From assembly GCA_963718575.1 (NCBI GenBank), contig OY970358.1, forward strand, positions 98,723 to 162,722: a stretch of 64,000 nt of DNA, given 5' to 3'. The stretch's first letter is position 1, and the number at the start of each line of letters is the position of its first letter. The notes under the pieces are model-generated. The model searched no databases. It saw nothing but the letters and a program-made list of their open reading frames with translations, and had not been told where the DNA came from. The translations under genes were made by a program, and so were the position numbers. This document shows positions 4,677 to 55,699 of this stretch, piece by piece. Origin of the DNA: an uncultured bacterium (GTDB lineage: Bacteria; Patescibacteriota; Minisyncoccia; UBA6257; 2-01-FULL-56-20).

Positions 4677-4677
4677 G

Positions 4678-9292: not shown

Positions 9293-9377
9293 AACTCAAA
9301 GGGGCCGCAACGGCACCCAGAAGTCCAGCCCCTCGAAAGCCTTGCAAAAGGCCCTTTAAAAGCTCTACAATCTCCCC

Positions 9378-10136
9378 ATGAATCCGGCGAATCTTCCCGC
9401 CCTCTATAACCTCATGGTGTCGCTAGTGCCTCCGGCAGTACTACTCGCAGTGCTCGCCTACTTCGTGCGCTTCTTTGGAAGAGTCATCGTTGATCAGAAA
9501 CCTTTTTGCGACGACCGCGATTGGGAGATAGAAGTCGCGGGAACTTTCTTCCTTCTCCTGCTTATAATTCTTCCGGCAGTACTCGGCGCGGTCGCGGCGT
9601 CATCGTGGGGCGGCCTCGGCACCGGCCATTGGATGCGTCTCGTTATCGTTCTCCTATTGATGTCTTGGCTTTTCATGATCAACGGCATTTTGGCCGAAAA
9701 ATTCTATGCGATAAAACTCCCTTTGGTCAATTTTTTCTTTATGTTTATTCCCCAAAAAGATCACGAAGCGCTCAAGAAGGACATGCTCACCTTCAATCGC
9801 TTTCTGCCGCTCTACGTTTTTTCCTTCATTTTCGCGTATATTTTCTCGCTGGAATACCATTCTGGAAGCGTTGCCTGGATTATCGTAACGGGAATCTTGC
9901 TTTTTATCAGCTTCATCCTCATGGCGCTCGATTTTTCGCTTCTCAAGGAACGACTGCCGCAAGTTGATATTCTTTTCATAGACAAAGATGAACCACCGAT
10001 CCGGGACGTGGCCCTTCTAAAAATAAATCAAGATAATGTGCGCATTATGGAAAAAGAGACAAAGCAGGTGATCATACTCAATAAAAGCCAGATCCGACGA
10101 ATAGAATATTTTCCACCGAAGGAATTGCAGGGATAA
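9378..10136 (+). CDS. polytopic membrane protein, hypothetical
   Basis: A 252-aa protein with 6 or more hydrophobic helices. It sits between two serine recombinases, upstream of a nuclease gene. Confidence 0.5.
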   Translation: MNPANLPALYNLMVSLVPPAVLLAVLAYFVRFFGRVIVDQKPFCDDRDWEIEVAGTFFLLLLIILPAVLGAVAASSWGGLGTGHWMRLVIVLLLMSWLFMINGILAEKFYAIKLPLVNFFFMFIPQKDHEALKKDMLTFNRFLPLYVFSFIFAYIFSLEYHSGSVAWIIVTGILLFISFILMALDFSLLKERLPQVDILFIDKDEPPIRDVALLKINQDNVRIMEKETKQVIILNKSQIRRIEYFPPKELQG

Positions 10137-10459
10137 TAAAAAAGAACAGCTCAGTCGGCTATTCTTTTGTTTCTCTCTTCCGAAATTACGATTCGATAAT
10201 TTTGTCCGCAGCCTTCTCAATTTTCCGTTCGCGCCACGCCCGTAGAATCGCCCCCGCGATGATGAGAGCGAAGATGGTGAGCGGTACTCCGCCGAAGATC
10301 AAGAGAATAATGATTGTTTCCATACGACACTGTTTTTTTGATATGCGACCTTTCACAACAATCAATGCCGCAATGGCGGGGCAAGTCCAGCGCCAAAAAG
10401 CATTGTCAAAACGGCCCAAAGCGTGATACCTTTGTAAGTAATTGAATATAAGATTGATC

Positions 10460-10610
10460 GCCTAAACCGCGCCTTCGCGTGGCATGGCATTACGCAGAAT
10501 CTCCCTTCCAGATACCAAACGCCACGTTTGGCGACTTCTGGAAGGGAGTCACTCCGAAAGGAGTGGGGCCGCAAGGCCTAAGCCAGCGTGGCGTTTTGTG
10601 TTCTGCAAAA
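10460..10610. promoter_or_regulatory. Highly structured non-coding element: ~48-bp imperfect palindrome (10501-10548), GAAA-tetraloop hairpin (10550-10565) and further inverted copies of AAACGCCACG
   Basis: Half-site ctcccttccaga...tctggaagggag surrounds ccaaacg-cca-cgtttgg. This segment lies inside the spurious 5' extension of ORF 10484. It is a candidate att site for the flanking serine recombinases, or an RNA leader. Confidence 0.45.
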
Positions 10611-10627
10611 CCCACGCCATCATTCCA

Positions 10628-11539
10628 ATGGCGATATATTCCATAGAAAACCATGCAGCAAAAAAAATCCCGGCCGTGAAGGTCGGGCTTGAGAAGGACG
10701 TGCAGAAAATATTCGAGAAAAACCTCGAGGAGATTTTAGACATCACATTCCTCGCGTCCGAATATCGGACGAGCTTCGGCGGCCGGATGGACACGCTCGG
10801 CATCGATCACAACGGCTCCCCAGTCATCATCGAATACAAACGCGGTCAGAACGATAGCGTCATCAACCAAGGCCTCTCGTATCTCCGATGGCTTTTAGAT
10901 CATAAGGCTGACTTCGAGGCGCTCACGCATCGTGCCAATATTGCGACCGCCATCGATTGGGCATCGCCGCGCGTGATCTGCGTTGCCGAGAGCTACAACA
11001 AATTCGATCTCGACACGGCCGATCTTCTGCCGATGGATATTGAGCTACTCCGTTACCGGATATATGAAAATAATATCCTCCTTGTTGAACCCGAGGTGCA
11101 ACGCAAGGTGAAAATATCAACGTCGGATATTTTCGAGAAGGCGGAGAAGCCTAAGGGCGAGTTCAGGGAAAAAATCCGACACAGCGTCGATGATCATCTG
11201 AAAACAGCGAGCCCGCAGACCCGTGAGCTTTTCGCCGCCGTCAGAGAAAAGATAACCGCCCTCGATGAATCCATTATCGAGGAATCAAAGGCAAAATACA
11301 TTGCCTATAAGCTGACGACGAACTTCGTGGACATCGTCGTCTACAAGGACTCGCTCAAGCTATTTTTGAATGTGCCGAGCGGCACGCTGATCGATTCCTC
11401 CGTGATCGCCCGAGATCTCACGAAGCCCAAGGCGATCGGCCACTGGGGCAACGGCGACTATGAAGTGAAGCTCGAACGCAACGAAGATATGGATGCCGTA
11501 ATGGGTTTGATTAAGCAGAGCTACGAATATAACAAATAA
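10628..11539 (+). CDS. PD-(D/E)xK (NucS/DUF91-like) nuclease domain protein with a C-terminal DUF5655-like domain
   Basis: Motif GGRMDTLGIDHNGSPVIIEYKRG (D..E.K). I place the real start at MAIYSIENH (10628) rather than the ORF-track start, because the upstream 48 codons are palindromic non-coding DNA. Confidence 0.6.
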   Translation: MAIYSIENHAAKKIPAVKVGLEKDVQKIFEKNLEEILDITFLASEYRTSFGGRMDTLGIDHNGSPVIIEYKRGQNDSVINQGLSYLRWLLDHKADFEALTHRANIATAIDWASPRVICVAESYNKFDLDTADLLPMDIELLRYRIYENNILLVEPEVQRKVKISTSDIFEKAEKPKGEFREKIRHSVDDHLKTASPQTRELFAAVREKITALDESIIEESKAKYIAYKLTTNFVDIVVYKDSLKLFLNVPSGTLIDSSVIARDLTKPKAIGHWGNGDYEVKLERNEDMDAVMGLIKQSYEYNK

Positions 11540-11550
11540 GTTTTTCGAGC

Positions 11551-12975
11551 ATGGCGAAAACCCGATCGGCCACGACGCAGGAAAATATCGCAGTTCGCTA
11601 CTGTCTCTATGCCCGTAAGTCGATGGAAGACGAGGAACGCCAAGCGCTTTCCATAGATTCGCAGCTTAACGAGATGCGGAAAATAGCGGAACGTGACGGT
11701 CTTATGGTTGCCATTGAAAAAATCGAATCGCATTCGGCCAAGGATTCCGGAACGCGTAAGGTGTTCAACCAGATGATCGGCGAGATCAAGGAAGGAAAGT
11801 ACAACGCGATCCTCACATGGAATCCCGACCGCTTGAGCCGTAACGCGGGAGACCTGGGTAAGCTCGTCGATCTCATGGATCAGCAACGGCTCTTCGAGAT
11901 TCGGACGTTCAACCAAAAATTCTCGAACACCCCTAACGAAAAGTTTCTGCTGATGATTTTGTGCAGTCAGGCGAAACTGGAAAACGACAACAAGCGCGAC
12001 AACGTCCAACGCGGCCTCCGGGCGCGGGCGCAAATGGGACTCTTCCCGACCTCGACTCCGATCGGCTATCTCACGTCGAACGACCGGAACCGGCCCTGCG
12101 AAAAGGACATCGATCCCGTGCGCGCGCCCGTCGTGAGGGAAATGTTCGAGAAGGTCGCCTACGAGCGTTACTCGTGCCATGACGTGCTCCGGTGGCTCGA
12201 GAAAATAAATTTCCGTTCGCCGAACAACAAGCTGGTGAGCCTGAGCACCGTGCAGAACATCCTGCGACGCACCTTTTATTACGGCCAGTACGAGTATCCG
12301 AGAGGCAGCGGAACGTGGTATCAAGGCATTCATACACCGATCGTCACGAAGGAATTGTTCGAACGCGCGCAGGAACAAATGGAACATTACAATCACGGCC
12401 ACGCGAAGGGGCGTAAGTCGACTCCGGAGTCGTTCGCCTTCCTCCGGCTCATCCGTTGCGGCAACTGCGGCGCGGGCATCACGGGTTCCGATACGTACAA
12501 GCATTTGAAAAACGGTAAGGTGCTCTTCTACCGCTATTACGCCTGCACGCAAGGCAAGAGCCGTTGGTGCCGGGAGCCCAGCATTAACGAAGTTGATCTC
12601 ATAGCGCAGCTTCTCGAAATGTTCGACCAGCTCGACATCGATCTCATAGGGACGAGGGCCCAGCTCGAGGCGGAGATCGAGAAATGGTACCGCATCGACG
12701 CCTTTGTGAGCGGCCAGCCCGTTCCGGAGCGGTCGCGGGAACGGAAGGAAATGGATTTGCGCGGATACGCGAAGGCGATATTCGAGGACGGGAGCGTCGA
12801 AGAACGAAGGGCGATGCTCCAGCATCTTAAGAGCCGCCTCATCCTCAAGGACAAGCACGTTTATCTCGACACCCTTCCGGCGGAAATAGCGGCAAAGGTT
12901 CCGCAGCCGCCCGAAGACGTGGAGAAAGATCCTCGGCTTGTGATCCGGCGCGGGCGGCGATTGCCGAAGGCATAA
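11551..12975 (+). CDS. Large serine recombinase, LSR2 (paralog of LSR1)
   Basis: YCLYARKSMEDEERQALSIDSQ... is about 60% identical to LSR1 over the catalytic and recombinase domains. A CxxC zinc ribbon (CGNCGAG) is present. The protein is 474 aa. Confidence 0.85.
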   Translation: MAKTRSATTQENIAVRYCLYARKSMEDEERQALSIDSQLNEMRKIAERDGLMVAIEKIESHSAKDSGTRKVFNQMIGEIKEGKYNAILTWNPDRLSRNAGDLGKLVDLMDQQRLFEIRTFNQKFSNTPNEKFLLMILCSQAKLENDNKRDNVQRGLRARAQMGLFPTSTPIGYLTSNDRNRPCEKDIDPVRAPVVREMFEKVAYERYSCHDVLRWLEKINFRSPNNKLVSLSTVQNILRRTFYYGQYEYPRGSGTWYQGIHTPIVTKELFERAQEQMEHYNHGHAKGRKSTPESFAFLRLIRCGNCGAGITGSDTYKHLKNGKVLFYRYYACTQGKSRWCREPSINEVDLIAQLLEMFDQLDIDLIGTRAQLEAEIEKWYRIDAFVSGQPVPERSRERKEMDLRGYAKAIFEDGSVEERRAMLQHLKSRLILKDKHVYLDTLPAEIAAKVPQPPEDVEKDPRLVIRRGRRLPKA

Positions 12976-12983
12976 ACAAGATC

Positions 12984-13658
12984 ATGGTATCCGACGAACG
13001 CATAAAAGAATTTAAGGTGATCCTCGAAAAAGAACGGGGCCTGGAGGTGACGTGGGAAGAAGCTGAGAAAGGCGCTTACCAGCTTGATGCACTCGCCAAC
13101 TTTATGTTCGACACGTGGCTCGAGGACGAGCGAAGAAAAAAGAAGCTGAAAGAATCCCCGAAAGGATTCTGCCTTGATGGTGTCGGCTATAGCTGCTTCA
13201 TCTGCGGCGACGGAACACCAAAAGATGGTAATTGGTACGACAAGTACGGCATCAAGTGCCTCGTCTGCCAGAAAGCCATCGACAAGAAAATAATTCCCGC
13301 GATGGCGGCAAAGCATCGGGACAGCTGGTATTCAAAATATGATTTGGAAAGCCGTTTCAACATCAAGTACCACGCGTTGAACCGTTTTATGAAGATGGGC
13401 GTCCTGAAGCCACGCATCGTTCCCGACGAGTCCGGCAGACCCCACTGCTATCTCTTTCTTATTAAAGATCAGAAAGACATACTGCCGCCGAAAAAACTGA
13501 CCGAATCAAAAATGGTGAGAGAAGTTAAGGACGGGAAAGAATATTTCCGTTCGTTGCCGTGGTACCGCTTCGTTGATCCATGGGAAGCGCTTAAAGGTTA
13601 TAAGATTATGGACCACATGCGTCCTAAACAGGAAGCCGAGATCGCTACCACTCCTTGA
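12984..13658 (+). CDS. hypothetical protein with CxxC...CxxC zinc-ribbon (possible RDF/regulator)
   Basis: CFICGD...CLVCQ motif. It starts 8 bp after the LSR2 stop. Function unknown. Confidence 0.4.
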   Translation: MVSDERIKEFKVILEKERGLEVTWEEAEKGAYQLDALANFMFDTWLEDERRKKKLKESPKGFCLDGVGYSCFICGDGTPKDGNWYDKYGIKCLVCQKAIDKKIIPAMAAKHRDSWYSKYDLESRFNIKYHALNRFMKMGVLKPRIVPDESGRPHCYLFLIKDQKDILPPKKLTESKMVREVKDGKEYFRSLPWYRFVDPWEALKGYKIMDHMRPKQEAEIATTP

Positions 13659-14112
13659 CGACGATCTCGCCTTTTTCGTAAGACACCCAAACCATCTTTG
13701 ATCCTTTTGGTTCAACATCTTTCAACGCCTCCGGAAGTTTTTCCAGCATTGTTTTAGTGTCGGATTCGTCCATTGGCAAGACGACGGTGACCTTCTCATA
13801 TTTTATGATGCGCTCGATTCTGGCATCCGGCTTTTTCTTTTTCAAATAATCCCAAAGCTTCGTTAGAGATTTTGTAAATGCTCCCCATAAAAGACCGTCG
13901 CGCAACCATCCCCAGAGACTGAAATCCGTGAAGATTAGTTTTATAACCTCGTATACTTCCGGCAGGCCGCTTTTTTCTATATATTGAAAAACTTCGGCGT
14001 CGAATTCCTGGTCATGAAAGATCTGGGCAACCTCTTCGCGCTCTTCGTCGGTAAGGCCCTTAATACTGATCTCTATTCGATTATTTTTTGGGACGGAATC
14101 CATTTCACTCAT
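13645..14112 (-). CDS. hypothetical protein (translationally coupled to the upstream DUF2779 nuclease gene)
   Basis: The start MSEMDSVP overlaps the DUF2779 stop (ATGA). The protein is acidic and I recognise no domains. Confidence 0.4.
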   Translation of the reverse strand: MSEMDSVPKNNRIEISIKGLTDEEREEVAQIFHDQEFDAEVFQYIEKSGLPEVYEVIKLIFTDFSLWGWLRDGLLWGAFTKSLTKLWDYLKKKKPDARIERIIKYEKVTVVLPMDESDTKTMLEKLPEALKDVEPKGSKMVWVSYEKGEIVVKEW

Positions 14113-15566
14113 TTTATTTCTTTTTCTAAATTCTCCAAAATCCGCACCATTGCCATCGTATCGAGACCACAATACGTAAGCATGTCGCTTTTGATTTTCT
14201 CTCTCTCGGCCAGAGGCGTTTTTGAATCAATAAGTCGCGGCCAAGTCACCGAAGCGGTTCCACCTTCCTGAATGGCAAGTTCCTTGTAGGACAGCTCGGG
14301 CACCATGACCGGGAGAACGGCCTTGATGGACGCGCTGCCGTGAAATCCCGCATCAACATATAACTTCTTCTTGAATATGACCATGAGATCATAAACGCGG
14401 CCGTTCACCGCGTCCATGAACTCCGCATATTCGGGATAGTATTGCCCTATCTCCTTATTCCTCGGCACCTCAAATGAGGCGTACCACACGATGACGGTCC
14501 CCTTCGTGCCGATATCTTTTTCGAGCTGCGCGACCATCGCCGGTATGGGATTTTCGTCCTTCTCTGCCAGAAATTCTTTTTGCTCGACTTTGGCATCAGG
14601 CGCTTTCTTCATATGCAGCGAATATTGAAACACAATCTTCTGCCACGGGCGCGTGCCGTCGAAGGGCGGTATGGGCGATGCGAACGTCTCATAGTCCAAG
14701 AAATAGATCGGGTACACGAGCGTCGCAAGCTCTTTCTTTATCACCGCAGCGTCCACTGTTTTTGCTACGGGTTTGTATCCGAGACCCCGGAGAAAGACCG
14801 GAGAGAACGAATTACCATCGAGTACTCCTTTCTGCAACAAGCTGAGGACGAATGCTGTCGGCCAATTCTTAACGTCTAGCTTTTTTGTTGGAGCTTGAGA
14901 AAGATAGGTCTCCAAATACTCGCACGAGCCGGTCTTTGAATTGCAAGAAAGGATGACGCGATTCTCTGGGTAATCTTTGATGGCGAGGATAACACGTGCG
15001 TCGGCTATACCTTCTTTGACCTCGGGTATCAGTTCACGTGCCTCTTCTGTGACGTCTTCGGTAATAAAAAGCTTTGCGAGTTCGATGTCCCCCTTTCGGA
15101 CATATTCGTTGTTCACGTGGATCAAATATGTCTTCCCCACTTTGATGCCTGCTTCTTCAAAACAAATGAGCTGGAACGCGACGTCGTGGAGATCTTCCGG
15201 CCGAACTTTGGTTGCACTCTTCACTTCGCGAATGTCGTAGACATCTGCCGTTGGGTCATAAGTCACGATGTCCGCGCGGCACGTAAGGCCGCTCTTCGTA
15301 ATGACGGTCGGCTGGAAAATAACCTTGGTCTTTTTGTCGAAGAGTTCCTTACTCTTGCGCCAACCCTCTTCGCCAAACTCAAAAGGCTCTACGCCATCTT
15401 TGAAGAGCTTCTTCGCGAGCGCATCCACCTTTTCGCCTTCCTGTTCATGAAAGAGTCCTGACGCCGAATGAGGCGGCATAAGATGTTTGCCCTTTCGTTC
15501 CATCCAAAGATAGCAGCCGCATTCCAGATAATTCTTATAATCGGTTTTGGTGAATAGTTCGGCCAT
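14109..15566 (-). CDS. Dual nuclease: N-terminal Cas4/RecB-like PD-(D/E)xK domain with Cys cluster plus C-terminal DUF2779 (RNase H-fold exonuclease-like)
   Basis: Has N-terminal cysteines (ECGCYLW... CNSKTGSCEY), a D..EVK motif (YDIREVKSATK), and the DUF2779 hallmark YFLDYETF...QYSLH. Confidence 0.6.
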   Translation of the reverse strand: MAELFTKTDYKNYLECGCYLWMERKGKHLMPPHSASGLFHEQEGEKVDALAKKLFKDGVEPFEFGEEGWRKSKELFDKKTKVIFQPTVITKSGLTCRADIVTYDPTADVYDIREVKSATKVRPEDLHDVAFQLICFEEAGIKVGKTYLIHVNNEYVRKGDIELAKLFITEDVTEEARELIPEVKEGIADARVILAIKDYPENRVILSCNSKTGSCEYLETYLSQAPTKKLDVKNWPTAFVLSLLQKGVLDGNSFSPVFLRGLGYKPVAKTVDAAVIKKELATLVYPIYFLDYETFASPIPPFDGTRPWQKIVFQYSLHMKKAPDAKVEQKEFLAEKDENPIPAMVAQLEKDIGTKGTVIVWYASFEVPRNKEIGQYYPEYAEFMDAVNGRVYDLMVIFKKKLYVDAGFHGSASIKAVLPVMVPELSYKELAIQEGGTASVTWPRLIDSKTPLAEREKIKSDMLTYCGLDTMAMVRILENLEKEIK

Positions 15567-15567
15567 T

Positions 15568-15792
15568 TCAATTAAAATTCTTCATTAATGTCGCTACTTT
15601 TTCACCTGCGTATTTCAAAATTTCCGGCGCACACTCCTTACAATAATTTTTCGATCCGAGACTATTCCTTTCGCGAATTAATAGGTGCGATTCTCCGGCC
15701 TGTATCTTGTGCTTTTTGGTCCTATGACACTTCCGCGACTTAATTGCCGTATCAATAGAAACATGAACGAGGATGTCCCTAGTTTGCGCCAT
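15568..15792 (-). CDS. small zinc-finger protein, hypothetical
   Basis: A 74-aa protein with KCHRTKKH...YCKEC. It overlaps the helicase stop by 14 bp. Confidence 0.3.
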   Translation of the reverse strand: MAQTRDILVHVSIDTAIKSRKCHRTKKHKIQAGESHLLIRERNSLGSKNYCKECAPEILKYAGEKVATLMKNFN

Positions 15793-17866
15793 GTTGTTTC
15801 TTTTGGGCTTCTTCGATGCGACTCTTTATTTCATCGCCAACTGCGTCGAGCTCCTCCATACCCGTCTCCGCCTGGGTTGCGGACAATGTGCTGCGTTTTT
15901 TCTTTTCTATTCCCGCTTTCCGGTTCACGCCAGACTGCACCATGCGGATTGCCGCAACAAGGTTCGCAGCGCCTCCGGCTTCCTGTGGGAGCAAGCGGCT
16001 CAGCTCAAAACCGCCTACTGATAAATTAAGATCTTTAAGAATCCGCGCGGCAACCGACTTCGGTCGATCGGCAAGCCGCTTGCGGGCCCCAATCCTCCGT
16101 TTTTGAGGCGATACGGGTATTATCTGCGGCGTGGCATCCAGTACTTCTTTTTGAGCTTCTTTCAATTTCGCCCTCAATTCGTCGCGCGTGAAAAATTTTC
16201 TGAACGGAACGCCCGCACCCGGCACAACGATATCCAAAATCTTGTCGATGATGCGATCGTCATTTGGATCAAGAAACGACTGTTTTACAAAATTGCTTAT
16301 GATCTCGTCGTGGACCATCATGTCTTTGTCGAAGCGGCGCGGTCGCCCGCCGCCACCACTGCCATCACCATCATCATCCTTGGTTGGTTGCTCTTCAAGC
16401 CATCGCCGAAACACCTCTTGGTCTTCAAGGTCGAATTCTCGGAAGTCACGCCAATTTCCATCATTATTGAGGCCGACGTGAGAAACCACATATCCGTGGT
16501 TCGCCGGATTGCTCGGATCGTCCTGAAACATGACCCGCATGATGCGTCCCACGAACTGGACATATGGGGAAAGGCTGCGGAACGGCCGGAAGATCGCCGC
16601 CACGCTGAGTGGCGGATGATCAAACCCCTCACCGAGCATCTGGACTTGCACGATACAGTCTATTTTTCCATCCTCCAGCTCCTGGAGAACTTTCTCCTGC
16701 TTGGTCGCATCCATCTCGCTATATATCTCGCGTGCGCTGACGTTCCGCTGTTCATAAAGCGTCCGGATCTGACGGGCGTGGTCGATGGAACAGGCCGCTG
16801 CGATGATCTGCTGTTTTTGCCCGGTCTTCGCTCGTAGCTCTCTCATGCGCTGGATGCTCGCGTCAACGATGTGGGCGTTACACTCGGGAGCAAGAGCAAC
16901 GCCATGACGAAACCATGATTCTTCTCGCAACTCCATAACTTCTTCCAAGGTGTGCCGCTTTGTGTCTCCTCTATAGGTGAAATAAATTTCCGAAGGCGCG
17001 ACATTGATCGAATGTATCTGCTTAATATACCCCGCAAGCATCGCTTTCGAATATGGGAAGCGGTACACGACTTCGCCGGTAACGCGCTGACCGTCGCTTC
17101 TGAACGGGGTTGCCGTCAAACTGGCAACTTTCGCCTCAGGGAATCGCTCAAAAACCTTCTTCCAACTTTCGGCCACATTGTGATGCCCTTCATCAACAAG
17201 AATCATGTCGAAGAAATTGGGAGGGAACTGCGGTAACCATCTGTCGGCAGAGCTCGCGAGCTGCTGGATATTCGTAACCACATACTGGCTTTCCGTGCAG
17301 TCATGTATGTTCGCATTCGGGCCATCGAGCAGCGCGACGAAGGGTCCATCGGCGAACGAAGAAAGAACTTTTGTTTTGCCAAGGAAGAATTTGGGATGTC
17401 CCACTTCAAGCGCCTCGTAGATACCTTTGCGTATCGTCGTATTCGGCGCGATCACCAAAACACGTCCCTGCGAGATTCCAAAAGGTAACGTAGCGATGAT
17501 GCCAGTTTTGCCGCATCCGACCGGAATTTGAATAATGGCGGGCGCACGATGCTTTTCGAAATATTCACGTACCGCTTTATGGGCTTCCCGTTGCGGCTCG
17601 CGAAGCCGCTCATTATTTTCTATGTCGGCGATGGACTTCACAAAAATATCCCCGGGATTGATCTGCTCGGCTCGCTTATATTCGAGGCGCAACGGCTCCA
17701 AGTCGGCGCGTTTATAATAACGGTAATCATTTCCCGGATGCCGCACCGATTTGAGCTTCCCTTCAGCATCCCATCGGCGAAGGGTCTGTGCAGATATACC
17801 CAGAAACCGAGCTGCCTGCTGGATAGTGAGATATTCTTTTTCCTGTTCGTTATCAGCCATACCCAA
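15779..17866 (-). CDS. MerR/excisionase-type HTH fused to DEAD/DEAH (ResIII-like) SF2 helicase with an uncharacterised C-terminal domain
   Basis: HTH (LTIQQAARFLGISAQTLRRWD), Walker A (PVGCGKTGI), DEGH (LVDEGHH), helicase C motifs, and a Gly-rich linker (GDGSGGGGRP). Confidence 0.7.
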   Translation of the reverse strand: MGMADNEQEKEYLTIQQAARFLGISAQTLRRWDAEGKLKSVRHPGNDYRYYKRADLEPLRLEYKRAEQINPGDIFVKSIADIENNERLREPQREAHKAVREYFEKHRAPAIIQIPVGCGKTGIIATLPFGISQGRVLVIAPNTTIRKGIYEALEVGHPKFFLGKTKVLSSFADGPFVALLDGPNANIHDCTESQYVVTNIQQLASSADRWLPQFPPNFFDMILVDEGHHNVAESWKKVFERFPEAKVASLTATPFRSDGQRVTGEVVYRFPYSKAMLAGYIKQIHSINVAPSEIYFTYRGDTKRHTLEEVMELREESWFRHGVALAPECNAHIVDASIQRMRELRAKTGQKQQIIAAACSIDHARQIRTLYEQRNVSAREIYSEMDATKQEKVLQELEDGKIDCIVQVQMLGEGFDHPPLSVAAIFRPFRSLSPYVQFVGRIMRVMFQDDPSNPANHGYVVSHVGLNNDGNWRDFREFDLEDQEVFRRWLEEQPTKDDDGDGSGGGGRPRRFDKDMMVHDEIISNFVKQSFLDPNDDRIIDKILDIVVPGAGVPFRKFFTRDELRAKLKEAQKEVLDATPQIIPVSPQKRRIGARKRLADRPKSVAARILKDLNLSVGGFELSRLLPQEAGGAANLVAAIRMVQSGVNRKAGIEKKKRSTLSATQAETGMEELDAVGDEIKSRIEEAQKKQHGAN

Positions 17867-17940
17867 GATTATACATCCTTACCTAAAATCAATGCAATAG
17901 GCAAAATAATGTAGAAAAAACATGGCTTTTAAAGAGCATG

Positions 17941-19410
17941 CTACATCTCCACGTACCCTATCTTCGGCAACCCGAGCCCGTGCATTTTGACCATCCCCCA
18001 TATTAACCAAACAAACGCGTCACAGAGATCGTCGTGTTTTTCGTTACCCAATCCAAAGATCTGCTGGAGTAATTGCTCGCAGCCGACGCGTGGGAATAAA
18101 ACCGTGCCGTTCTTTATATACGGCGCAATCACCTCGAGCCGCGTGCGCTTGTCTTTCATCGCCACCATGCGCTCAACGGAGAGCAATGCATTTTCCATCT
18201 CCTGCGCCACAGCTTCCCCGACGTTGTTCTGCTCGCAATAGAAGAGATGCATGCCGTCGTGATCCATCTTCTTCATGAACTTTATAAACTCCGCGAGCCG
18301 CACGTGCTCGTTATACGGGTTTGGCATGACGTAAAGCTTCGCCTGATCGCCGCCTTCAAAGAGGAATGCCTTGCCATCCACCATCGCCATGAAGTCGGCG
18401 GATTCTTTCTGTGATAACGCGCAGTCGATGCCGTGCCCAGTGAATCCCGCGTCGGTCACCACGTGATCGAGCCCTTTCTTGTCGGTATACGTCTCCGGCA
18501 ATGTATCGTAGTAGCGGATGTCTTCCGGCTTCACCACCTGATCGGCGGGCGGCACGATCTGCAACAAATATTCGCGGGAGAATGCCGTGGCTCCCACGAG
18601 CTCGGCTTGTTTCTTAATCGCCACGGCCGTCGGAAAGAGTGCGGGCCATGCGCAATGTTTTGCGAGCCCCGCGTAATCGGTGCCGCGATAATCCCCTGCA
18701 AGCCGATACTCAAGCACCTTGTCCATGCGATCCTTCATGCGGGCAAGGAGGCAATCGTCGTGGAGCAGGTTTCCGATAAGGACAAGCTTGCGCCGTTGGG
18801 GATCAAGCGCCGGGATTACCTCGTTCACGAGCCAGTTCTCGCTCTTATCGCGATTGCCCTGCGTCTTCACCCACTCCGTATCTTCGGGATCGTCAAGAAT
18901 GAGCAGTGAGGGACGCGCGTGGCCGTGTTTGATGCCACGGATCTTCTGCCCGCGCGACCTGGCAATGATGCGAACGCCGTTTGAGAGAAGGAGGTTCTGT
19001 TTCTGCCATTCTTCCCCTTTGATCTTCCACTCCTCAGGATCTTTCCCTTTCACGATGCCGAAGTCCGCCTTCAGGACAAAATTATTGTCGAGCTCGCGCT
19101 TGATGTTTGCGATCACCTGGCTCGATTGCGAGAATTTGTCGCCGACGAGCACGATGTACTGATACCGTTCGGGATGCACGAGCGCGGCCCAGAGCGGCAG
19201 CGCCAGGCTGCCGTAGAAACTCTTCGCGCTCTGGCGGAACCCCAATATTTCAAGGAACTCGCAGCTGTGATCGCCCAACGCATCCGCCATCTCTTTATGG
19301 AATCCGGCGGGCGGAAGCGAGAGGCCGTCCGCGAGATAGACCTGCGTGAATCCCCAGAGCGTCTTCGCCATCTCCCGCCGGACGTTATAATCTTCGAATT
19401 GGTGTTTCAT
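17941..19410 (-). CDS. terL: Phage terminase large subunit-like protein (ATPase + RNase H-like nuclease)
   Basis: Walker B (LLILDDPED), a C-terminal acidic nuclease motif (HDDLCDAF), size 489 aa, and a small upstream partner gene. Confidence 0.6.
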   Translation of the reverse strand: MKHQFEDYNVRREMAKTLWGFTQVYLADGLSLPPAGFHKEMADALGDHSCEFLEILGFRQSAKSFYGSLALPLWAALVHPERYQYIVLVGDKFSQSSQVIANIKRELDNNFVLKADFGIVKGKDPEEWKIKGEEWQKQNLLLSNGVRIIARSRGQKIRGIKHGHARPSLLILDDPEDTEWVKTQGNRDKSENWLVNEVIPALDPQRRKLVLIGNLLHDDCLLARMKDRMDKVLEYRLAGDYRGTDYAGLAKHCAWPALFPTAVAIKKQAELVGATAFSREYLLQIVPPADQVVKPEDIRYYDTLPETYTDKKGLDHVVTDAGFTGHGIDCALSQKESADFMAMVDGKAFLFEGGDQAKLYVMPNPYNEHVRLAEFIKFMKKMDHDGMHLFYCEQNNVGEAVAQEMENALLSVERMVAMKDKRTRLEVIAPYIKNGTVLFPRVGCEQLLQQIFGLGNEKHDDLCDAFVWLIWGMVKMHGLGLPKIGYVEM

Positions 19411-19418
19411 GACGTTCG

Positions 19419-19985
19419 TTATTTATCCCCCGGGGCGTCTGGGGAATCCGAAATGTTCAAACTCCCGGGGTCGTCCTTTCTTGTTTCTTCCTTCTTTTCG
19501 GTTGGCGCGGGCAACGGCGGTTTCGCTGATGGTTCGGTATCTTTCCATTTCTCTGTAACTGTGGGAGAGAAAACAACTTTGGTACGCGCTTTCTCTCCGA
19601 AAACATCGCCATCCTCGATCTGGTCCGACGCAAGAAGCATCTGGTAACGCATCTCGCTTATCTTCGCTATCGTATTGAGCGCCCCCAATCTGATCGAAGG
19701 GGTGATGGCATTATCGGTCGCGATGTACCATGCTCGCGCGAGCGCTTCACTCAGGTTGCCATCGTGTTCGGCAAGCGCCCGCTCCGCCGTCTGGCGACGC
19801 ACACGCTGAATCCGACGGAGGATGGCGATGTCGCGTAATCTCCCGATATAATTTTCGGTGACATTGTGAATTTCGTTCCGATTCAAGACCTTGATGAGCT
19901 CGACGACCGTGATCTCGGGATTTTGAATCCAAATTTTCCCGATTGTAGCGATGATAAATTCCCGCATGGCTTCTCCTCTGTTCAT
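19419..19985 (-). CDS. possible terminase small subunit / phage DNA-binding protein
   Basis: A 188-aa protein immediately upstream of terL, with a basic N-terminal helical region. The assignment rests on position only. Confidence 0.3.
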   Translation of the reverse strand: MNRGEAMREFIIATIGKIWIQNPEITVVELIKVLNRNEIHNVTENYIGRLRDIAILRRIQRVRRQTAERALAEHDGNLSEALARAWYIATDNAITPSIRLGALNTIAKISEMRYQMLLASDQIEDGDVFGEKARTKVVFSPTVTEKWKDTEPSAKPPLPAPTEKKEETRKDDPGSLNISDSPDAPGDK

Positions 19986-20202
19986 GTGATTAGGTGCCCC
20001 GTGGTTCAGGAGAAATAAAAAATCCCCTCGCGTTCGGGGTGGAACAGCGTGAAGCGTCCTAACTTATGTCAGGGCTTCAGTCGCGCATGAAAGAATTGAG
20101 CTGTAGTACCTTCTTGGTCATAACTCCATTATACAACGTTGTCATAATTTCATCTGTGGATTTCTCCGCCGCAAAAGTAAATCTTATGGGAAACAAAATA
20201 AT

Positions 20203-20224
20203 ATTACAAAATATATTTTGTAAT
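20203..20224. promoter_or_regulatory. Perfect 22-bp palindrome attacaaaatatattttgtaat in an AT-rich intergenic region
   Basis: The palindrome is exact. It lies 77 bp upstream of the DUF2188 gene, at the right edge of the phage-like module. Confidence 0.4.
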
Positions 20225-20300
20225 CTGTCCATTATTTTATATACCAATCCACCCCCCGATTTCTATTCCAAAATATGCCATCAGATGATACAGTTTAGGC

Positions 20301-20510
20301 ATGAGCAATAAGGACAGAATATACATAGAACGGCGTCCTGAGGGCGATTATGCGGTCAGGAAGGAGGACTCTGAAAGGGCCTCCGCTGTTGCCCCCACCC
20401 AGAAGGAAGCCATCGAAATAGCCCGGGAAATGAACCCCGGTATCGCCCCGGACGTTGAGCGCGTCCGATACACGAATCGCGGAAAGCCCGATCAATGGCG
20501 AAGGGCATAA
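20301..20510 (+). CDS. DUF2188 domain protein
   Basis: A 69-aa protein; the pattern YAVRKEDSERASAVAPTQKEAIEIAREM matches the DUF2188 consensus. Confidence 0.5.
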   Translation: MSNKDRIYIERRPEGDYAVRKEDSERASAVAPTQKEAIEIAREMNPGIAPDVERVRYTNRGKPDQWRRA

Positions 20511-20624
20511 GCCCCGAAAACCCGCAACTGGGACGGGTCTGATTTTCACATTTTCTGAATCCCCTAAAAATCCTTACACGGCTTGCAAAAGCCTTTAGTC
20601 TGTAATGGCGCCACACAGCAGAAC

Positions 20625-20653
20625 TTGACATTTCTATATATTTATATTAGAAT
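20625..20653 (+). promoter_or_regulatory. sigma70-like promoter TTGACA-N17-TAGAAT
   Basis: Consensus -35 with ideal 17-bp spacing, followed by the GGAGGG SD and an ATG at 20670. Confidence 0.5.
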
Positions 20654-20669
20654 CTGAGTGGAGGGTTTT

Positions 20670-20789
20670 ATGCAAGCCGAATATGCTCAACGTTCCGGAG
20701 AATCACATGCCGAGTGGCTTAATCGCATCTACGAGATGGCTCATGTCACTGCTGAAGAAAAGGGTGGTTGGAAATCGATTCAGAATTGA
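20670..20789 (+). CDS. small protein (39 aa) MQAEYAQRSGESHAEWLNRIYEMAHVTAEEKGGWKSIQN
   Basis: A consensus promoter and strong SD lie 8 nt upstream. It is not in the ORF track because it is shorter than 60 aa. Confidence 0.35.
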   Translation: MQAEYAQRSGESHAEWLNRIYEMAHVTAEEKGGWKSIQN

Positions 20790-20890
20790 TCGCCATCCTC
20801 CTCAACAACATGAAGGGCTTGCTCCCAAAACTGGGATAGTTCTCCCTTCCAACATAGCGGTGTTTCCCTACCCCAGGGAACGCCGCTTTT

Positions 20891-22576
20891 TTATTGAGCC
20901 TGCTTCTCCAAGTTTGCGAGTTCGGCTTCGAGCGTCTGGATCTCTGCGGTCAACAACGCCGTTGAAGATCCGGAAGAAACGCTTGTACCAGTAGAAAGTG
21001 CATTTAAAGCGCTCCTTGTCTTTGGACCAACCAGACCCCATCCTGCGCCGCCGGTGCACGCAATATTTTCCGCACATTGGAATTTTTCCACCGCATTTCG
21101 GGTAAGGTTACCGTAGAATCCGGTCGCATCAACCGAAGCAAGATAGCCATTTTGCACAAGAATTGATTGTAACGCACTCACTTGCGTATTACGCAGACCA
21201 TAATAGAGCGATTGGGTGATAGCAGGCAAAACGGATGAAGGCGCAGTAACCGTTGGAGTTGAAGTCGAAGGTGAAGCGACCACCGCGGGGGTTGTGACAA
21301 CCGGCGGCGGTAAGGTCGCCATAGGGGCGGGAGCGAATGCAGAAATAATGACGCTTGACGTTGCCGACATTCCGGAAACAGCACCGCTCACATCGCTCGC
21401 GGTCACGTTATACGAGTAAAGCGTTCCTGTCGCAAGCATCCCCGTGTCCGAATAATTCGTCGAAGAGACCGTCGCGATCTGGGTGCCATTGCGATATACC
21501 GTGTAGCCGGTAATGACAAGCGGGTCGATCGATTCCACCCACGTGAGAGCGACGCTCGAGGTCCCCGTTTGCGTCGCCGTCAATGCGTAGGGAGCTCCCG
21601 GTCCGTTGTACTGCAATATGGTCACGCTCACCGGAGATGATTCCATGGAGACATTTCCCGCTACGTCATATGCCGCTATTTGATAGCCATAGGTAAGACC
21701 CGTAGAAAGTCCGCTATCGGCATATGAAGGTACCGACGCACTCGCGATCTGAACACCGTTCCTAAACACCTGATATCCTGCAAGGCCGGACGGATCGGTC
21801 GAGCTTGCCCATGTGATATTTACGCTCCCGGCGCCGGCCTGTTGGACGGAAACTTTCGTCGGCGTGGTGGGCGGAATGGTGTCCACGACAACCGTCACGG
21901 TGGCAGACGATGGCGCTGAAATATTCTGTGCCGCGTCGTATGCAACGATCTTATACGTATAAGTGCCCTGCGGAACGGTGTCGGTTATCGAAGTGCCGGT
22001 GAACGCCGATGTGCTTGAAGTGATCGATATTCCGTTGCGATAGACGTAATACCCTGCGACCCCGATCGCGTCCGAAGATGGATTCCACGAAATGGTGAGC
22101 GTCACCGGGGTGTAAAAGGAATTTGTGGAAGTGGTTCCGGCGATCGTCACGCCGGACGGGGTCGTCGGCGGCGTGGTGTCCGCAATAAGCGTCACACCCG
22201 CCGGCGACGACAGTGCTGAAGTGATGCCGTTCGCGTCGTACGCAGCCACGGTATAACTATAGACACCGGGCGAAAGATCGCCGTCTACGATCGATGTCCC
22301 GGCAGTGGTCGCAATATTCGCGCCGTTACGATACACATAATATCCCTCGATGGTTCCCGATGTTTCGGTTGAAGCCGACCAGGAAACGGTGACTTGTTTC
22401 GGCGTATCCGAAGTCGTCGCGGTGAGTCCGGTCGGGGCAGAAGGCAACGTAACGGCAACTTGAGCGTTTACAACAGAATACCCGACCAGCATCGAGGCAA
22501 CCCCGGCGATAAAAATTAAAACAAAGAGTCCGTTTCTTGCTGACATAAGAACTTCATTATACTGCTTTTTATCCAA
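20891..22576 (-). CDS. Cell-surface protein: signal anchor, four fibronectin type III-like repeats, C-terminal peptidoglycan-binding domain and coiled coil
   Basis: Repeats of GYxVYRNG...Y.Y.V.AYD..GN.S occur four times, followed by a PG_binding_1-like segment (LRNTQVSALQSILVQNGYL...) and a terminal coiled coil. Confidence 0.7.
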   Translation of the reverse strand: MDKKQYNEVLMSARNGLFVLIFIAGVASMLVGYSVVNAQVAVTLPSAPTGLTATTSDTPKQVTVSWSASTETSGTIEGYYVYRNGANIATTAGTSIVDGDLSPGVYSYTVAAYDANGITSALSSPAGVTLIADTTPPTTPSGVTIAGTTSTNSFYTPVTLTISWNPSSDAIGVAGYYVYRNGISITSSTSAFTGTSITDTVPQGTYTYKIVAYDAAQNISAPSSATVTVVVDTIPPTTPTKVSVQQAGAGSVNITWASSTDPSGLAGYQVFRNGVQIASASVPSYADSGLSTGLTYGYQIAAYDVAGNVSMESSPVSVTILQYNGPGAPYALTATQTGTSSVALTWVESIDPLVITGYTVYRNGTQIATVSSTNYSDTGMLATGTLYSYNVTASDVSGAVSGMSATSSVIISAFAPAPMATLPPPVVTTPAVVASPSTSTPTVTAPSSVLPAITQSLYYGLRNTQVSALQSILVQNGYLASVDATGFYGNLTRNAVEKFQCAENIACTGGAGWGLVGPKTRSALNALSTGTSVSSGSSTALLTAEIQTLEAELANLEKQAQ

Positions 22577-54748: not shown

Positions 54749-55690
54749 TTATTTCTTCCCCTGATCAATCGCGTGCCCACCGAACCGGTTCCGTAATGCA
54801 GACAACACCTTCCCGATATAGCTCGGCGATTTTTTTGAGCGGACGCGGAATTTGAATGAGTCCTCGATGACGGGCACGGGCACTTTGAACTTTTTGCCGG
54901 TTTTGACCGTCCACTCGCCTTCTCCGGTGTACGCAACGGAACCGGAAACAGATTTAAGATCCTGGCCATAGATCTTGTACGCATCCTCCAACCATCCCAC
55001 GAGGCGCGACTCGATCACGCTGCCGCGATTGTAGACGTTCGCCACCTGTTCGAGATCCAGCTTGAACGGCGATTTCTTCATGATGGCAAAACCTTCGCCG
55101 AGCGACTGCATCATGCCGTACTCGATGCCGTTGTGCACCATTTTTACGAAGTGGCCCGCGCCTGCGGAACCGAAGTACGAATAACCGCCCGGCACGGAGA
55201 GATCGCGGAAGAGCGGCTCTAGGCGTTGGAACATTGCGCGATCACCGCCGATCATAAGCGATCCTCCGTTGCGCGCGCCCGACGGTCCGCCGGAAAATCC
55301 GACGTCCATAAAGTGAATGCCGCGCTTTTTGAGCAGCTTCGCGCGGCGGACAGAATCCTCATAGAACGCATTCGCCGCATCGATCACGATGTCGCCCTTT
55401 TTTAAATGTTGCACGATGCCATCTTTGCCAAACAATAAATCGTCATTCCCCTTTCCGGCGGTGATCATAAGCCAGATGATGCGCGGCGTCTTCAGCTCTG
55501 TCACGAGCTCTGCGTGCGTGAATACGCCCTGGATTCCCTCTTTTTGGATCATCGTCGACCGGCTCGGGAGAACGGTTCGACGCGACGACGCGCCAGCCCT
55601 TCTCGTGCAACTGTCGCGCGACGTTCGCGCCCATCTTTCCCAGGCCAAAGATGCCGATCTCGCGGCGGAGCGCGAGGTGCGCGCTGCCGG
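54749..55690 (-). CDS. gnd: 6-phosphogluconate dehydrogenase (decarboxylating, short NAD-type form); the N-terminal Rossmann segment is read in the zwf frame
   Basis: GAGHFVKMVHNGIEYGMMQ core. The IGIFGLGKMGANVARQL N-terminus lies in the zwf frame, upstream of an A5/A4 homopolymer shift. Confidence 0.7.
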   Translation of the reverse strand, partial: PAARTSRSAARSASLAWERWARTSRDSCTRRAGASSRRTVLPSRSTMIQKEGIQGVFTHAELVTELKTPRIIWLMITAGKGNDDLLFGKDGIVQHLKKGDIVIDAANAFYEDSVRRAKLLKKRGIHFMDVGFSGGPSGARNGGSLMIGGDRAMFQRLEPLFRDLSVPGGYSYFGSAGAGHFVKMVHNGIEYGMMQSLGEGFAIMKKSPFKLDLEQVANVYNRGSVIESRLVGWLEDAYKIYGQDLKSVSGSVAYTGEGEWTVKTGKKFKVPVPVIEDSFKFRVRSKKSPSYIGKVLSALRNRFGGHAIDQGKK

Positions 55691-55699
55691 CTTTGCCCG

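Follow-up and report, generated by a model that had tools for sequence, protein, structure and literature searches.

A LOOT RNA and a terminase pair without a portal gene at the ends of a possible satellite-like island in Patescibacteria

Genes and RNA on the recombinase side

The window (the whole stretch of DNA analysed, 64 kb of an 881-kb genome) carries a candidate island in a Patescibacteria chromosome, which would extend over ~9.5 kb from position 10459 to position 19985. The borders are inferred rather than mapped, since searches for att sites, flanking repeats, circular contigs and an island-free site found none; eight contigs from eight different samples share an identical TerS-DUF2188 junction, and the island appears to be fixed in the sampled population. 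Every gene listed in the first-pass annotation, which gave the span as 11551-19985, is present at its coordinates; the left limit had to be moved to ~10459, as a LOOT RNA and a PDC-S18 gene precede the large serine recombinase (LSR). Beyond the island, the window consists of ordinary chromosomal DNA (SecA, G6PD, transporters). Two LSRs and a restriction-modification (RM) system make the neighbourhood a mosaic; a block of LSR1 and a Type I RM system adjoins the island, and with LSR1-type elements close by it is hard to tell which recombinase mobilises which DNA.

One end of the island family is an inward-reading operon headed by the LOOT RNA; in the window its order is LOOT, PDC-S18, LSR and a Zn-ribbon protein, all on the plus strand. 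The PDC-S18/DUF5655 protein with a NucS-like N-terminal domain (10628..11539) is encoded by the first gene of this operon. Its ORF opens at 10484 and the true start is probably M49 at 10628; the PADLOC PDC-S18 match (3.5e-95) aligns from residue 46, and Pfam DUF5655 is matched at 7.5e-13. Homologues of 303 aa lie upstream of an LSR in loci L118 (72% identity) and L121 (70%); L004 shares the C-terminal tail at 87.5% identity. The first-pass call of a large serine recombinase for the next gene, LSR2 (11551..12975), is borne out by the Pfam domains Resolvase, Recombinase and Zn_ribbon_recom and by a match to phrog_95 integrase (8e-66). LSR2, presumed to be the integrase of the island, has relatives in L004 (84%), L200 (79%) and L007 (58%). 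The 224-aa Zn-ribbon protein that follows (Zn224; 12984..13658) has no family match in profile searches; it shares 83% identity with the first 217 aa of the product of the gene following the LSR in L004, and a homologue is missing from L200. Zn224 belongs to the backbone and accompanies LSR2; that it serves as a directionality factor or regulator is a guess.

The LOOT RNA itself (Rfam RF03000; 10459..10579, plus strand) was found by cmscan with the full model covered (54.9 bits versus a gathering score of 46.4, E 5e-8). It reads inward at the LSR-side end, ~49 nt ahead of the probable start of PDC-S18, and LOOT is also present upstream of an inward-reading operon in L118, L007, L006, L121, L207 and L211. 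Our own RNA model R1, built from six fetched island copies, matched only its six source loci and none of the ~180 phage/prophage loci (2.8 Mb); the independent Rfam model had earlier picked up five of the six copies, the window copy among them. A pattern scan of IMG/VR together with R1 added four further copies, giving ten island loci in all. In the alignment of these 10 copies 87.5% of cells are paired and double changes occur at 23 of 29 pairs, values matched in 0 of 500 shuffles; G-U pairs are plentiful. The LOOT-led operon converges on a portal-less large terminase subunit (TerL) in seven loci, and the TerLs facing LOOT represent three different families; that of L211 is GpA-type. In L119 LOOT and TerL are on the same strand, and in L006 the interval from LOOT to TerL contains no LSR. 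Most likely, LOOT controls the LSR-side operon, either as its 5′ leader or as a small RNA. The Rfam entry describes it as an sRNA only, and a literature search gave no published genomic context or function; the window copy conforms to the family in being full length, above the gathering score and strongly covarying, and differs in that LOOT here marks the LSR-side end of terminase-carrying islands.

The terminase end and its relatives

The opposite end of the island family is an inward-reading TerS-TerL pair without portal, capsid or tail genes. The window TerL (17941..19410, minus strand), which is not followed by a portal gene, matches the ‘terminase large subunit’ family phrog_38 at 1.2e-62, as the first-pass assignment of a large terminase subunit would have it, and its Pfam Terminase_6C match falls slightly below the cut-off. 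The Walker A and B motifs and the acidic residues of the nuclease are invariant in alignment A1, and TerL appears to be intact. The portal-less TerLs as a group have intact ORFs and are under purifying selection, with dN/dS of 0.07-0.24, figures that are rough because the dS values are saturated.

For the putative small subunit TerS (19419..19985, minus strand), the first-pass assignment did not gain HMM support: there was no match in Pfam, PHROG, NCBIfam or PDB, and a single-sequence structure model was poor. Yet in ~65 related phage loci the ORF immediately preceding TerL is a phmmer match to this protein (E 1e-11 to 1e-3). The TerS stop is 8 nt ahead of the TerL start and the gene sits at the outer end of the island; its putative identity is drawn from this position and weak homology.

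Full-length TerL relatives of 38-51% identity with enough flanking sequence have a portal homologue 0.4-3 kb downstream in essentially all cases (metagenomes: 47 of 49 loci; genomes and IMG/VR: every locus whose flank reaches 2.5 kb or more), and the LSR is absent from all of these loci. Seven TerL clusters of 52-100% identity (the window, L004, L006, L007, L119, L121 and L122) have no portal within 3.9-17 kb, and most have an LSR nearby. The portal-less TerLs make one neighbour-joining (NJ) clade, which also includes one true phage, L005. The reported absence of portal, capsid and tail genes holds across the 64-kb window, where no structural gene was found; 8173 ORFs from ~180 related phage loci, compared with the window, hit only TerL, TerS and a few host genes, SecA and ABC transporters among them.

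Comparison of the window with L004 (TerL 74% identity, LSR 84%) separates the ends from the middle. DNA homology covers 11295-13612 on the LSR side (the PDC-S18 tail, LSR and Zn224) and 17942-19368 on the terminase side (TerL), starting exactly at the TerL stop codon, while the middle of L004 is wholly different (ThiF, HTH_3 + M78 and others). Since L004 keeps both ends and replaces all between, the ends can be regarded as backbone and the middle as swappable cargo. Some related loci are damaged: L118 has a frameshifted DUF2779 gene, a fragmented MmeI gene and LSR fragments, L121 a truncated LSR, and L032-L034 truncated TerL fragments.

One could argue that TerS and TerL are relics of a prophage decayed in an integration hot spot, with the LSR, LOOT and cargo as unrelated neighbours. 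The mosaic character of the locus, with its two LSRs and RM system, the clear decay at L118, L121 and L032-L034 and the apparent fixation of the island would all agree with this scenario. Nevertheless, the TerLs of seven divergent clusters are full length, with catalytic residues kept and dN/dS (roughly estimated) well below 1; independent deletions would all have had to break off precisely at the TerL stop codon; LOOT accompanies portal-less TerLs of three unrelated families; and the backbone genes of the two ends vary in concert when the window and L004 are compared. Prophage decay is, in our judgement, quite unlikely.

Two independent cargo cassettes

The cargo of the window consists of two independent cassettes, both on the minus strand: an HTH-helicase gene with a gene for a 74-aa Zn-ribbon protein, and a DUF2779 nuclease gene with a gene for a 155-aa protein. 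The first-pass call of a MerR-HTH SF2 helicase passes the HMM tests. The protein (15779..17860) has the Pfam domains MerR, HTH_17, ResIII and Helicase_C, i.e. a MerR/excisionase-type HTH joined to a RadD/XPB-like SF2 helicase, and its best PDB sequence match is RadD (2.7e-13). The helicase has relatives in >120 clusters at 60-89% identity, with source names including Acidobacteria, Planctomycetes and Gammaproteobacteria; in other loci it adjoins DarTG, IS3 and a tyrosine integrase. The gene for the 74-aa Zn-ribbon protein (15568..15792) shares 14 nt with the end of the helicase gene and stops a single base short of the DUF2779 start codon. A 48%-identical Zn ORF directly follows the ~78%-identical helicase in L201 and L202-L204, and this small protein, the conserved partner of the helicase, is the sole neighbour kept by the ~78%-identical relatives.

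The DUF2779 protein (485 aa; 14109..15566) matches Pfam PF11074 at 9e-38, with weak PADLOC Cas4 profile matches (~5e-6) in its N-terminal part. An AF2 model (pLDDT 94.8) has Cas4 8d3l_I as its best PDB match; MGME1 and AddB are also among the top matches, and a DinG entry scores lower (E 6e-3). Residues D99, E114 and K116, and D291, E293, D393, Y465 and D469, are invariant. The protein is predicted to combine an N-terminal Cas4-like PD-(D/E)xK domain with a C-terminal DEDD-type 3′-5′ exonuclease-like domain. This combination, described at first as a fusion, turned out to be the normal architecture of the family, common to >1200 full-length homologues and already published (PMC3985635, PMC13621843). 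Like UU173 / MMSYN1_0389-type members, the window protein has the Cas4-like PD-(D/E)xK domain and the 3′-5′ exonuclease-like RNase H fold; the difference is that its gene is mobile-island cargo. Homology at the DNA level is confined to the ORF (84% nt in L200, 77% nt in L118), and since it ends at the ORF borders the gene is evidently exchanged as a single-ORF cassette. Uniform housekeeping synteny, raised earlier as a possibility, is not seen; the relatives occupy variable island contexts, and the genes that follow DUF2779 in them encode different proteins. The last gene of the operon, for the 155-aa protein (13645..14112), was correctly described as translationally coupled, its start overlapping the DUF2779 stop by 4 nt (ATGA); the protein has no homologue in any fetched locus.

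The first-pass annotation had also considered that the helicase, the Zn-finger protein and the Cas4/DUF2779 nuclease make one new anti-phage system. The four genes are indeed translationally coupled in one operon in the window, both cassettes are found elsewhere in defence-island-like contexts, and the helicase has weak PADLOC matches to restriction-type helicases. Still, relatives of each cassette occur without the other: the closest DUF2779 relatives (90%, 80%, 74% and 57% identity) lack such a helicase in their vicinity, the ~78%-identical helicase relatives keep the Zn protein without DUF2779, and nucleotide homology stops at the DUF2779 borders. A joint system is therefore highly improbable, and a new kind of phage satellite fits the locus better.

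Relation to phage satellites and a possible life cycle

We give about even credence to the window island being a terminase-only, satellite-like element of a ~4-10 kb Patescibacteria island family. This reading, in substance the capsid-less terminase-carrying element proposed at the outset, is favoured by the recurrence of portal-less TerS-TerL in seven TerL clusters, by conserved ends around a swapped middle and by the specific association of LOOT with such islands. Patescibacteria MAGs contain prophages in which a related TerL is accompanied by a portal, so candidate helpers exist in the phylum. On the other hand, contigs of the related phages are ~45-55 kb, far above the 9.5-kb island, which counts against a satellite; no gene for capsid-size redirection is evident in the island. 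The failure to find att sites, flanking repeats, circular contigs or an island-free site weighs in the same direction, as do the missing conserved replication module and the divergent arrangements in L119 and L006.

PICIs, including SaPIs, are similar in being integrated islands of ~10 kb that have an integrase near one end, encode a TerS of their own, carry accessory and defence genes and lack genes for virion structure (core features as in PMC10085698). PICIs lack TerL and usually have tyrosine integrases, Stl/AlpA-type regulators and a primase-replicase, whereas the window island, in the phylum Patescibacteria, combines a LOOT RNA with a large serine recombinase and a complete TerL, and no replication module conserved across island members was found. 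The cfPICIs, the only described satellite family with TerL in the core alongside TerS (PMC10085698), encode capsid, portal, protease and head-tail connectors, none of which the window island has. The PLEs of Vibrio cholerae, like marine VEIMEs and tycheposons, count as satellite-type elements; they lack capsid genes, can employ a serine recombinase and in some cases have TerS homologues and RM or Abi cargo. No TerL has been reported and no LOOT RNA is known in them, and they have no sequence relationship to the island backbone. For VEIMEs, concatemer-sized DNA was reported and capsid remodelling was considered uncommon (PMC9618062).

The terminase might instead be retained for the benefit of the host or the island, outside a satellite life cycle. 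In one version, headful packaging into the capsids of a co-infecting phage begins in situ from TerS-TerL at the outer edge, with lateral transduction of the cargo, LSR2 and the adjacent LSR1 and Type I RM block; in another, the terminase interferes with packaging by an invading phage and is thus a defence. The outer-edge TerS-TerL does point inward over the cargo toward the LSR1-RM block (window, L007), and the L118 TerL likewise points inward beside other island genes. The cargo and the genes around it resemble defence genes (Type I RM, PDC-S18, Abi_C, Ymh and, close to the helicase cassette, DarTG), the lack of an island-free site agrees with this view, and experimentally demonstrated lateral transduction of defence islands beside phage or PICI att sites (PMC12829572) is a precedent. 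Against it, both ends travel together with the LSR while the cargo is swapped, which points to a self-contained mobile unit and not to a launcher fixed in the chromosome, and no known PADLOC defence system includes a TerL. We consider such a benefit unlikely, though it overlaps the satellite model and sequence alone cannot separate the two.

Under the satellite model, the LSR would integrate and excise the island. On infection by a helper phage whose TerL is of the same lineage, the island TerS would recognise island DNA, and the island TerL would dock on helper procapsids and fill them with island DNA, probably in concatemeric form or by headful packaging from the TerS end. The island may thus spread in helper virions, as phage satellites do, and its cargo genes would probably act in defence or nucleic-acid conflict.

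Gene content of the island and its terminase

The ORF map and HMM scans recovered every gene listed in the first-pass annotation. On the plus strand, the island's large serine recombinase, LSR2 (11551–12975), contains Resolvase, Recombinase and Zn_ribbon_recom domains, all above the Pfam cut-offs, and matches phrog_95 at 8e-66; it is followed by a gene for a 224-aa Zn-ribbon protein (12984–13658, plus strand) without a family match. The minus strand encodes, in the direction of transcription, a 188-aa putative TerS (19419–19985), TerL (17941–19410), a MerR-HTH/ResIII/Helicase_C helicase assigned by HMM scan (15779–17860), a 74-aa Zn protein taken from the ORF map (15568–15792), a 485-aa DUF2779 protein (14109–15566; PF11074 at 9e-38, with weak N-terminal matches to PADLOC Cas4 profiles) and a 155-aa protein from the ORF map with no assignment (13645–14112). 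The successive spacings from TerS to the 155-aa gene are 8 nt, 80 nt, a 14-nt overlap, 1 nt and a 4-nt overlap, which fits a single operon. In a scan for promoters and terminators, promoter-like motifs were as numerous as expected from shuffled sequence, and on the minus strand no signal parted TerL from the helicase. No island gene matched a primase or replicase in Pfam, PHROGs or NCBIfam; the sole HTH is fused to the helicase, a gene missing from sister islands.

The assignment of TerL in that annotation holds. The protein matches phrog_38 at 1.2e-62 across residues 12–479, NCBIfam psiM2_ORF9 at 3e-6 and Pfam Terminase_6C at 22.0 bits, just under the cut-off of 22.6. In an alignment of TerLs from phages and from loci lacking a portal gene, residues G57-K63-S64, D173-D174-E176, D329 and D460-D461, i.e. 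the Walker A/B ATPase motifs and the acidic residues of the RNase H-like nuclease, are invariant. The TerS assignment obtained no HMM confirmation, but it gained support from position and homology. TerS matched nothing in Pfam, PHROGs, NCBIfam or PDB, either alone or as a 30-sequence profile, and its single-sequence AF2 model (pLDDT 59) was too poor for a structure search; its stop codon lies 8 nt ahead of the TerL start in the same orientation, and in phmmer it matched the ORF immediately preceding TerL in ∼65 related phage loci (E-values 1e-11 to 1e-3).

TerL has hundreds of relatives, from which we fetched 27 genome, 80 IMG/VR and 80 metagenome loci, each flanked by 10 kb (handles starting with L denote fetched loci, with identities given relative to the window). 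When 8173 ORFs from ∼180 related-TerL loci were compared with the window by tblastn, the only matches in the 64 kb were TerL and TerS, apart from a small number of host genes. In those relatives the portal is readily found: of the loci with 38–51% TerL identity and adequate flank, practically all (among them 47 of the 49 metagenome loci having >3.5 kb downstream) encode a protein homologous to the portal-MuF protein of L005, a phage contig, 0.4–3 kb downstream from the TerL gene. The genome and IMG/VR loci without a portal are contigs ending too early or truncated TerL fragments, while the two metagenome loci without one, L121 and L122, are the closest relatives (54–55%). None of the portal-bearing phage-type loci of 38–51% identity contains the large serine recombinase of the island.

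Seven TerL clusters (52–100% identity) have no portal within 3.9–17 kb: those of the window, L004 (74%), L006 (64%), L121 (55%), L122 and L007 (both 54%) and L119 (52%). In this identity range the sole true phage is L005 (60%), and in a rough NJ tree the portal-less TerLs together with L005 make one clade, apart from the phage TerLs. With no portal homologue either in the window or in the six sister loci, there is no sign of an ordinary, complete prophage. A decayed prophage is also a less likely explanation, since the TerLs are intact and under selection: all portal-less TerLs are full-length ORFs that keep the ATPase and nuclease residues, and their pairwise dN/dS values are 0.07–0.24, rough figures given that dS is saturated. 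IMG/VR scans with TerL, DUF2779 and helicase as single proteins found no close viral relatives, and the nearest TerLs of isolated phages are ∼25% identical or less.

Conserved ends, exchangeable middle and island borders

Comparison with sister locus L004 separates the island into parts. The PDC-S18 protein is 87.5% identical (over the part present on the contig), LSR2 84%, the 224-aa Zn-ribbon protein 83% and TerL 74%; DNA homology is limited to blocks 11295–13612 and 17942–19368 of the window, the second of which begins exactly at the TerL stop codon. The middle of L004, unrelated to that of the window, encodes a ThiF-family protein, HTH_3 and Peptidase_M78 domains and several unassigned proteins. 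The same region carries an ASCH protein in L007, a DinG-like helicase with a 272-aa protein in L006, Hypoth_Ymh and a PD-(D/E)xK nuclease in L121 and L122, and Abi_C, DUF2130, DnaB_C and DUF2779 in L119. As the ends are shared and the middle differs among relatives, we consider the ends a conserved backbone and the middle a cargo slot. Borders that resemble deletions and fall precisely on the TerL stop codon likewise speak against prophage decay.

Separate metagenome assemblies of the window locus (L002/L226, L228 and L003/L229) yielded contigs that stop 130–160 bp past the TerL stop; breaks exactly at the cargo boundary hint at cargo heterogeneity within populations. A decayed sister island is seen at L118 (10001–19263), where a frameshift divides DUF2779, four fragments remain of an MmeI-type RM gene and an LSR1-like gene is broken up. 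Evidently, the islands turn over through erosion besides cassette exchange.

Within the cargo, the DUF2779 protein scores 129.8 bits against PF11074 (cut-off 23.3), and its AF2 model (pLDDT 94.8) has Cas4 (8d3l_I, E-value 5e-5) as the best Foldseek hit in PDB, followed by MGME1, SSO0001 and AddB. Residues D99, E114 and K116, the D...E-x-K motif of the Cas4/RecB-type PD-(D/E)xK fold, are invariant, as are D291, E293, D393, Y465 and D469. Of the cysteines that might hold a four-cysteine Fe-S cluster like that of Cas4 and AddB, C16 and C215 are invariant and C135 and C208 nearly so; the usual CxxCx5C pattern is missing. The fusion itself is not new: >1200 full-length homologues share the Cas4-like plus DUF2779 architecture (some listed also with PF01930), Majorek et al. 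(2014) assigned DUF2779 to the 3′–5′ exonucleases and noted its co-occurrence with DUF83 (PMC3985635), and a 2026 paper presents MMSYN1_0389 as a Cas4-like and exonuclease fusion (PMC13621843). Pfam and PADLOC scans of the neighbours found no cas genes near the DUF2779 gene.

As an alternative to a satellite, it had been suggested that helicase and nuclease make up one anti-phage system. We reject a joint system because the relatives of each occur without the other. The nearest DUF2779 relatives reside in other islands that lack this helicase: L200 (90%), L118 (80%, frameshifted), L115–L117 (74%) and L119 (57%), the nucleotide homology to L200 and L118 ending at the ORF borders. The helicase has >120 clusters at 60–89% identity, from sources whose names cover several phyla. 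Together with a 74–77-aa Zn-ribbon protein it constitutes a conserved two-gene cassette (window 15568–17860, minus strand; L201 7521–9804; L202 6653–8946), whose copies in a Pyrinomonadaceae (Acidobacteria) MAG and another contig are ∼78% (helicase) and 48% (Zn protein) identical to those of the window and have DarT-NADAR/DarTG, IS3 and a tyrosine integrase as neighbours, with neither DUF2779 nor TerL nearby. The PADLOC v2 matches of helicase and nuclease were weak and partial (mREase_IV 7e-16, PbeA 4e-14). PADLOC v2 does not contain the cassette, which may represent a defence or MGE module not yet described.

The surroundings are mosaic and belong to a Patescibacteria chromosome. On the left, the island adjoins a minus-strand block (1707–9292) made up of Type I RM genes hsdR, hsdS and hsdM (1707–7946) and a second large serine recombinase, LSR1 (7943–9292), ∼50% identical to LSR2. 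The 3′ end of LSR1 overlaps the hsdM start by 4 nt, so that LSR1 appears co-transcribed with a complete Type I RM (hsdM-hsdS-hsdR). LSR1-like genes elsewhere are followed by a Dcm methylase (L007) or lie near an hsdM-like gene (L223). LSR1 and the RM genes may constitute an element of their own that meets the terminase island head to head, and adjacent LSR1-type elements blur the island boundaries. Between the two recombinases are a membrane protein gene and then a PDC-S18/DUF5655 gene ending 11 nt before LSR2; its match to the PADLOC profile PDC-S18 (E-value 3.5e-95) is to a candidate system and does not imply a role in defence.

To the right of 20.9 kb the chromosome is ordinary, with genes for an fn3/PG-binding protein, a pilin, MFS and ABC transporters, GH130, G6PD and SecA, the latter 64–70% identical to the SecA regions of two fetched loci, one of them a Patescibacteria MAG; the host assignment was drawn from this SecA similarity. 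In the G6PD ORF (55443–57218, minus strand) a C-terminal stretch is similar to the N-terminal end of the NAD-binding domain of 6-phosphogluconate dehydrogenase, which may reflect a gene fusion or read-through to the gene that follows. A gene for a 69-aa DUF2188 protein (20301–20510, plus strand; PADLOC candidate PDC-S16 at 3e-9) is situated between TerS and the first unambiguous host gene. All eight contigs with the exact flanking DUF2188 protein carry the island, hence no empty site was seen among them. A repeat search over 9200–20900 gave only short, chance-like matches and no att candidates, the att cores of large serine recombinases being too short for such a search, and none of the fetched contigs had the terminal overlaps of a circular form.

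The LOOT RNA

When the sequences preceding PDC-S18 in three loci were aligned, a conserved segment stood out that contains hairpins with GNRA loops and substitutions compensating one another. In Rfam this segment corresponds to LOOT (RF03000), located at 10459–10579 (plus strand) in the window and scoring 54.9 bits, above the gathering threshold of 46.4. Further Rfam matches are in L118 (9748–9869, minus strand), L007 (6923–7034, minus), L006 (5635–5756, minus) and L119 (2690–2810, plus). A covariance model built here from the fetched LOOT copies added L121 (19552–19666, minus strand), and a pattern scan of IMG/VR filtered with this model added L207 (2421–2538, minus), L211 (8399–8516, plus), L222 and L223. 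With this model no further LOOT was detected in the remainder of the window, nor any in the 2.8 Mb of ∼180 phage and prophage loci. Among the sampled loci, LOOT is confined to islands of the kind that carries a large serine recombinase and a terminase, an association that is a further argument against a decayed prophage.

Across ten LOOT copies 87.5% of cells pair and 23 of the 29 pairs have double changes; none of 500 shuffles reached the observed values, and slid controls collapse. The frequent G-U pairs argue for a strand-specific RNA. We considered LOOT as a palindromic DNA site of the recombinase, which is disfavoured by the many strand-specific G-U pairs and the GNRA loops.

LOOT is always situated 40–120 nt upstream of a co-oriented gene. 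The long PDC-S18 ORF opens at 10484, inside LOOT, which covers its first 96 nt; the start is thus most likely M49 at 10628, with the first 48 codons probably untranslated. This start agrees with the 303-aa homologues and with the start of the PDC-S18 profile alignment (gene callers give 351 aa).

A LOOT-led operon converges on a portal-less TerL in the window, L006, L007, L118, L121, L207 and L211, and in L207 a NucS-like gene alone is placed between LOOT and TerL; L119 and L006 depart from the canonical LOOT–TerL layout. In L222 the operon led by LOOT encodes an RM system and faces an ORF with weak resemblance to TerS. The TerLs of L118 and L207 are from a family sharing just 31% identity with the window TerL, and the TerL facing LOOT in L211 is of the GpA type. 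That LOOT recurs beside TerLs from three families suggests that terminases were acquired more than once, from different helpers. The 12.8-kb IMG/VR contig L211 looks like tandem terminase islands: it carries two unrelated TerLs (69–1385 and 11242–12732, both minus strand), one 31% identical to that of the window, with ParB-MTase, TerS and a large serine recombinase upstream, and the GpA-type one facing the LOOT-led operon. Our literature searches did not find a published genomic context of LOOT.

Relation to known satellites and a possible life style

To our knowledge, almost nothing is known of phage satellites, or of mobile elements generally, in ultra-small Patescibacteria (CPR). The island resembles PICIs in being small and integrated, in having its own TerS but no structural genes, and in the position of the integrase at one end. 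In contrast to PICIs, which lack TerL and typically use a tyrosine integrase, it has TerL and a large serine recombinase; no primase-replicase module was found in it, and its only HTH that could correspond to a Stl/AlpA/MerR-type regulator is part of the cargo helicase. TerL is shared with cfPICIs, whose capsid, portal and head-tail connector genes are missing here (PMC10085698), while among PLEs and marine VEIMEs, too, there are serine recombinases and cargo of the RM or Abi type (PMC9618062). According to a census of satellites, the known ones either borrow the TerL of the helper (PICI, PLE and P4) or also build capsids (cfPICI) (PMC10085698). Literature searches found no description of satellites with TerS and TerL but without capsid genes.

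The data support the initial view of the locus as a capsid-less, satellite-like island and extend it with new borders, a backbone-and-cargo structure and LOOT as a hallmark. Most simply, the locus is explained as a mobile island that has two functional ends and, between them, a slot for cargo. Such an island would supply the complete terminase, and a helper phage would supply capsids and tails. LSR2 would excise the island, whose TerS-TerL would then act at a pac or cos site; a unit of 9.5 kb would need concatemers for packaging. In a close variant, the inward-pointing terminase launches lateral transduction of the cargo along with the adjacent LSR1–RM block; transfer of defence islands by lateral transduction has been shown experimentally in other bacteria (PMC12829572).

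Tentatively, and with somewhat less than even confidence, we propose that the satellite-like islands make up an unrecognised, terminase-only class of satellites in Patescibacteria and possibly other phyla. In this class a LOOT-led operon (often NucS-like/PDC-S18 plus a large serine recombinase) would converge on a portal-less TerS-TerL repeatedly captured from different phage lineages, with a swappable slot for defence cargo in between and with LOOT serving as a regulatory or packaging RNA.

A satellite bringing the complete packaging enzyme alone would be a new strategy of hijacking, and would imply docking of its TerL on a foreign portal. The layout of conserved ends and swappable middle offers a natural slot for finding new defence genes, with the pair of HTH-helicase and Zn protein and the DUF2779 nuclease as candidates. 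Because LOOT is linked tightly and specifically to the islands, the role of this structured RNA can be tested directly; if the terminase-only class is real, it would give the orphan Rfam motif its first biological context.
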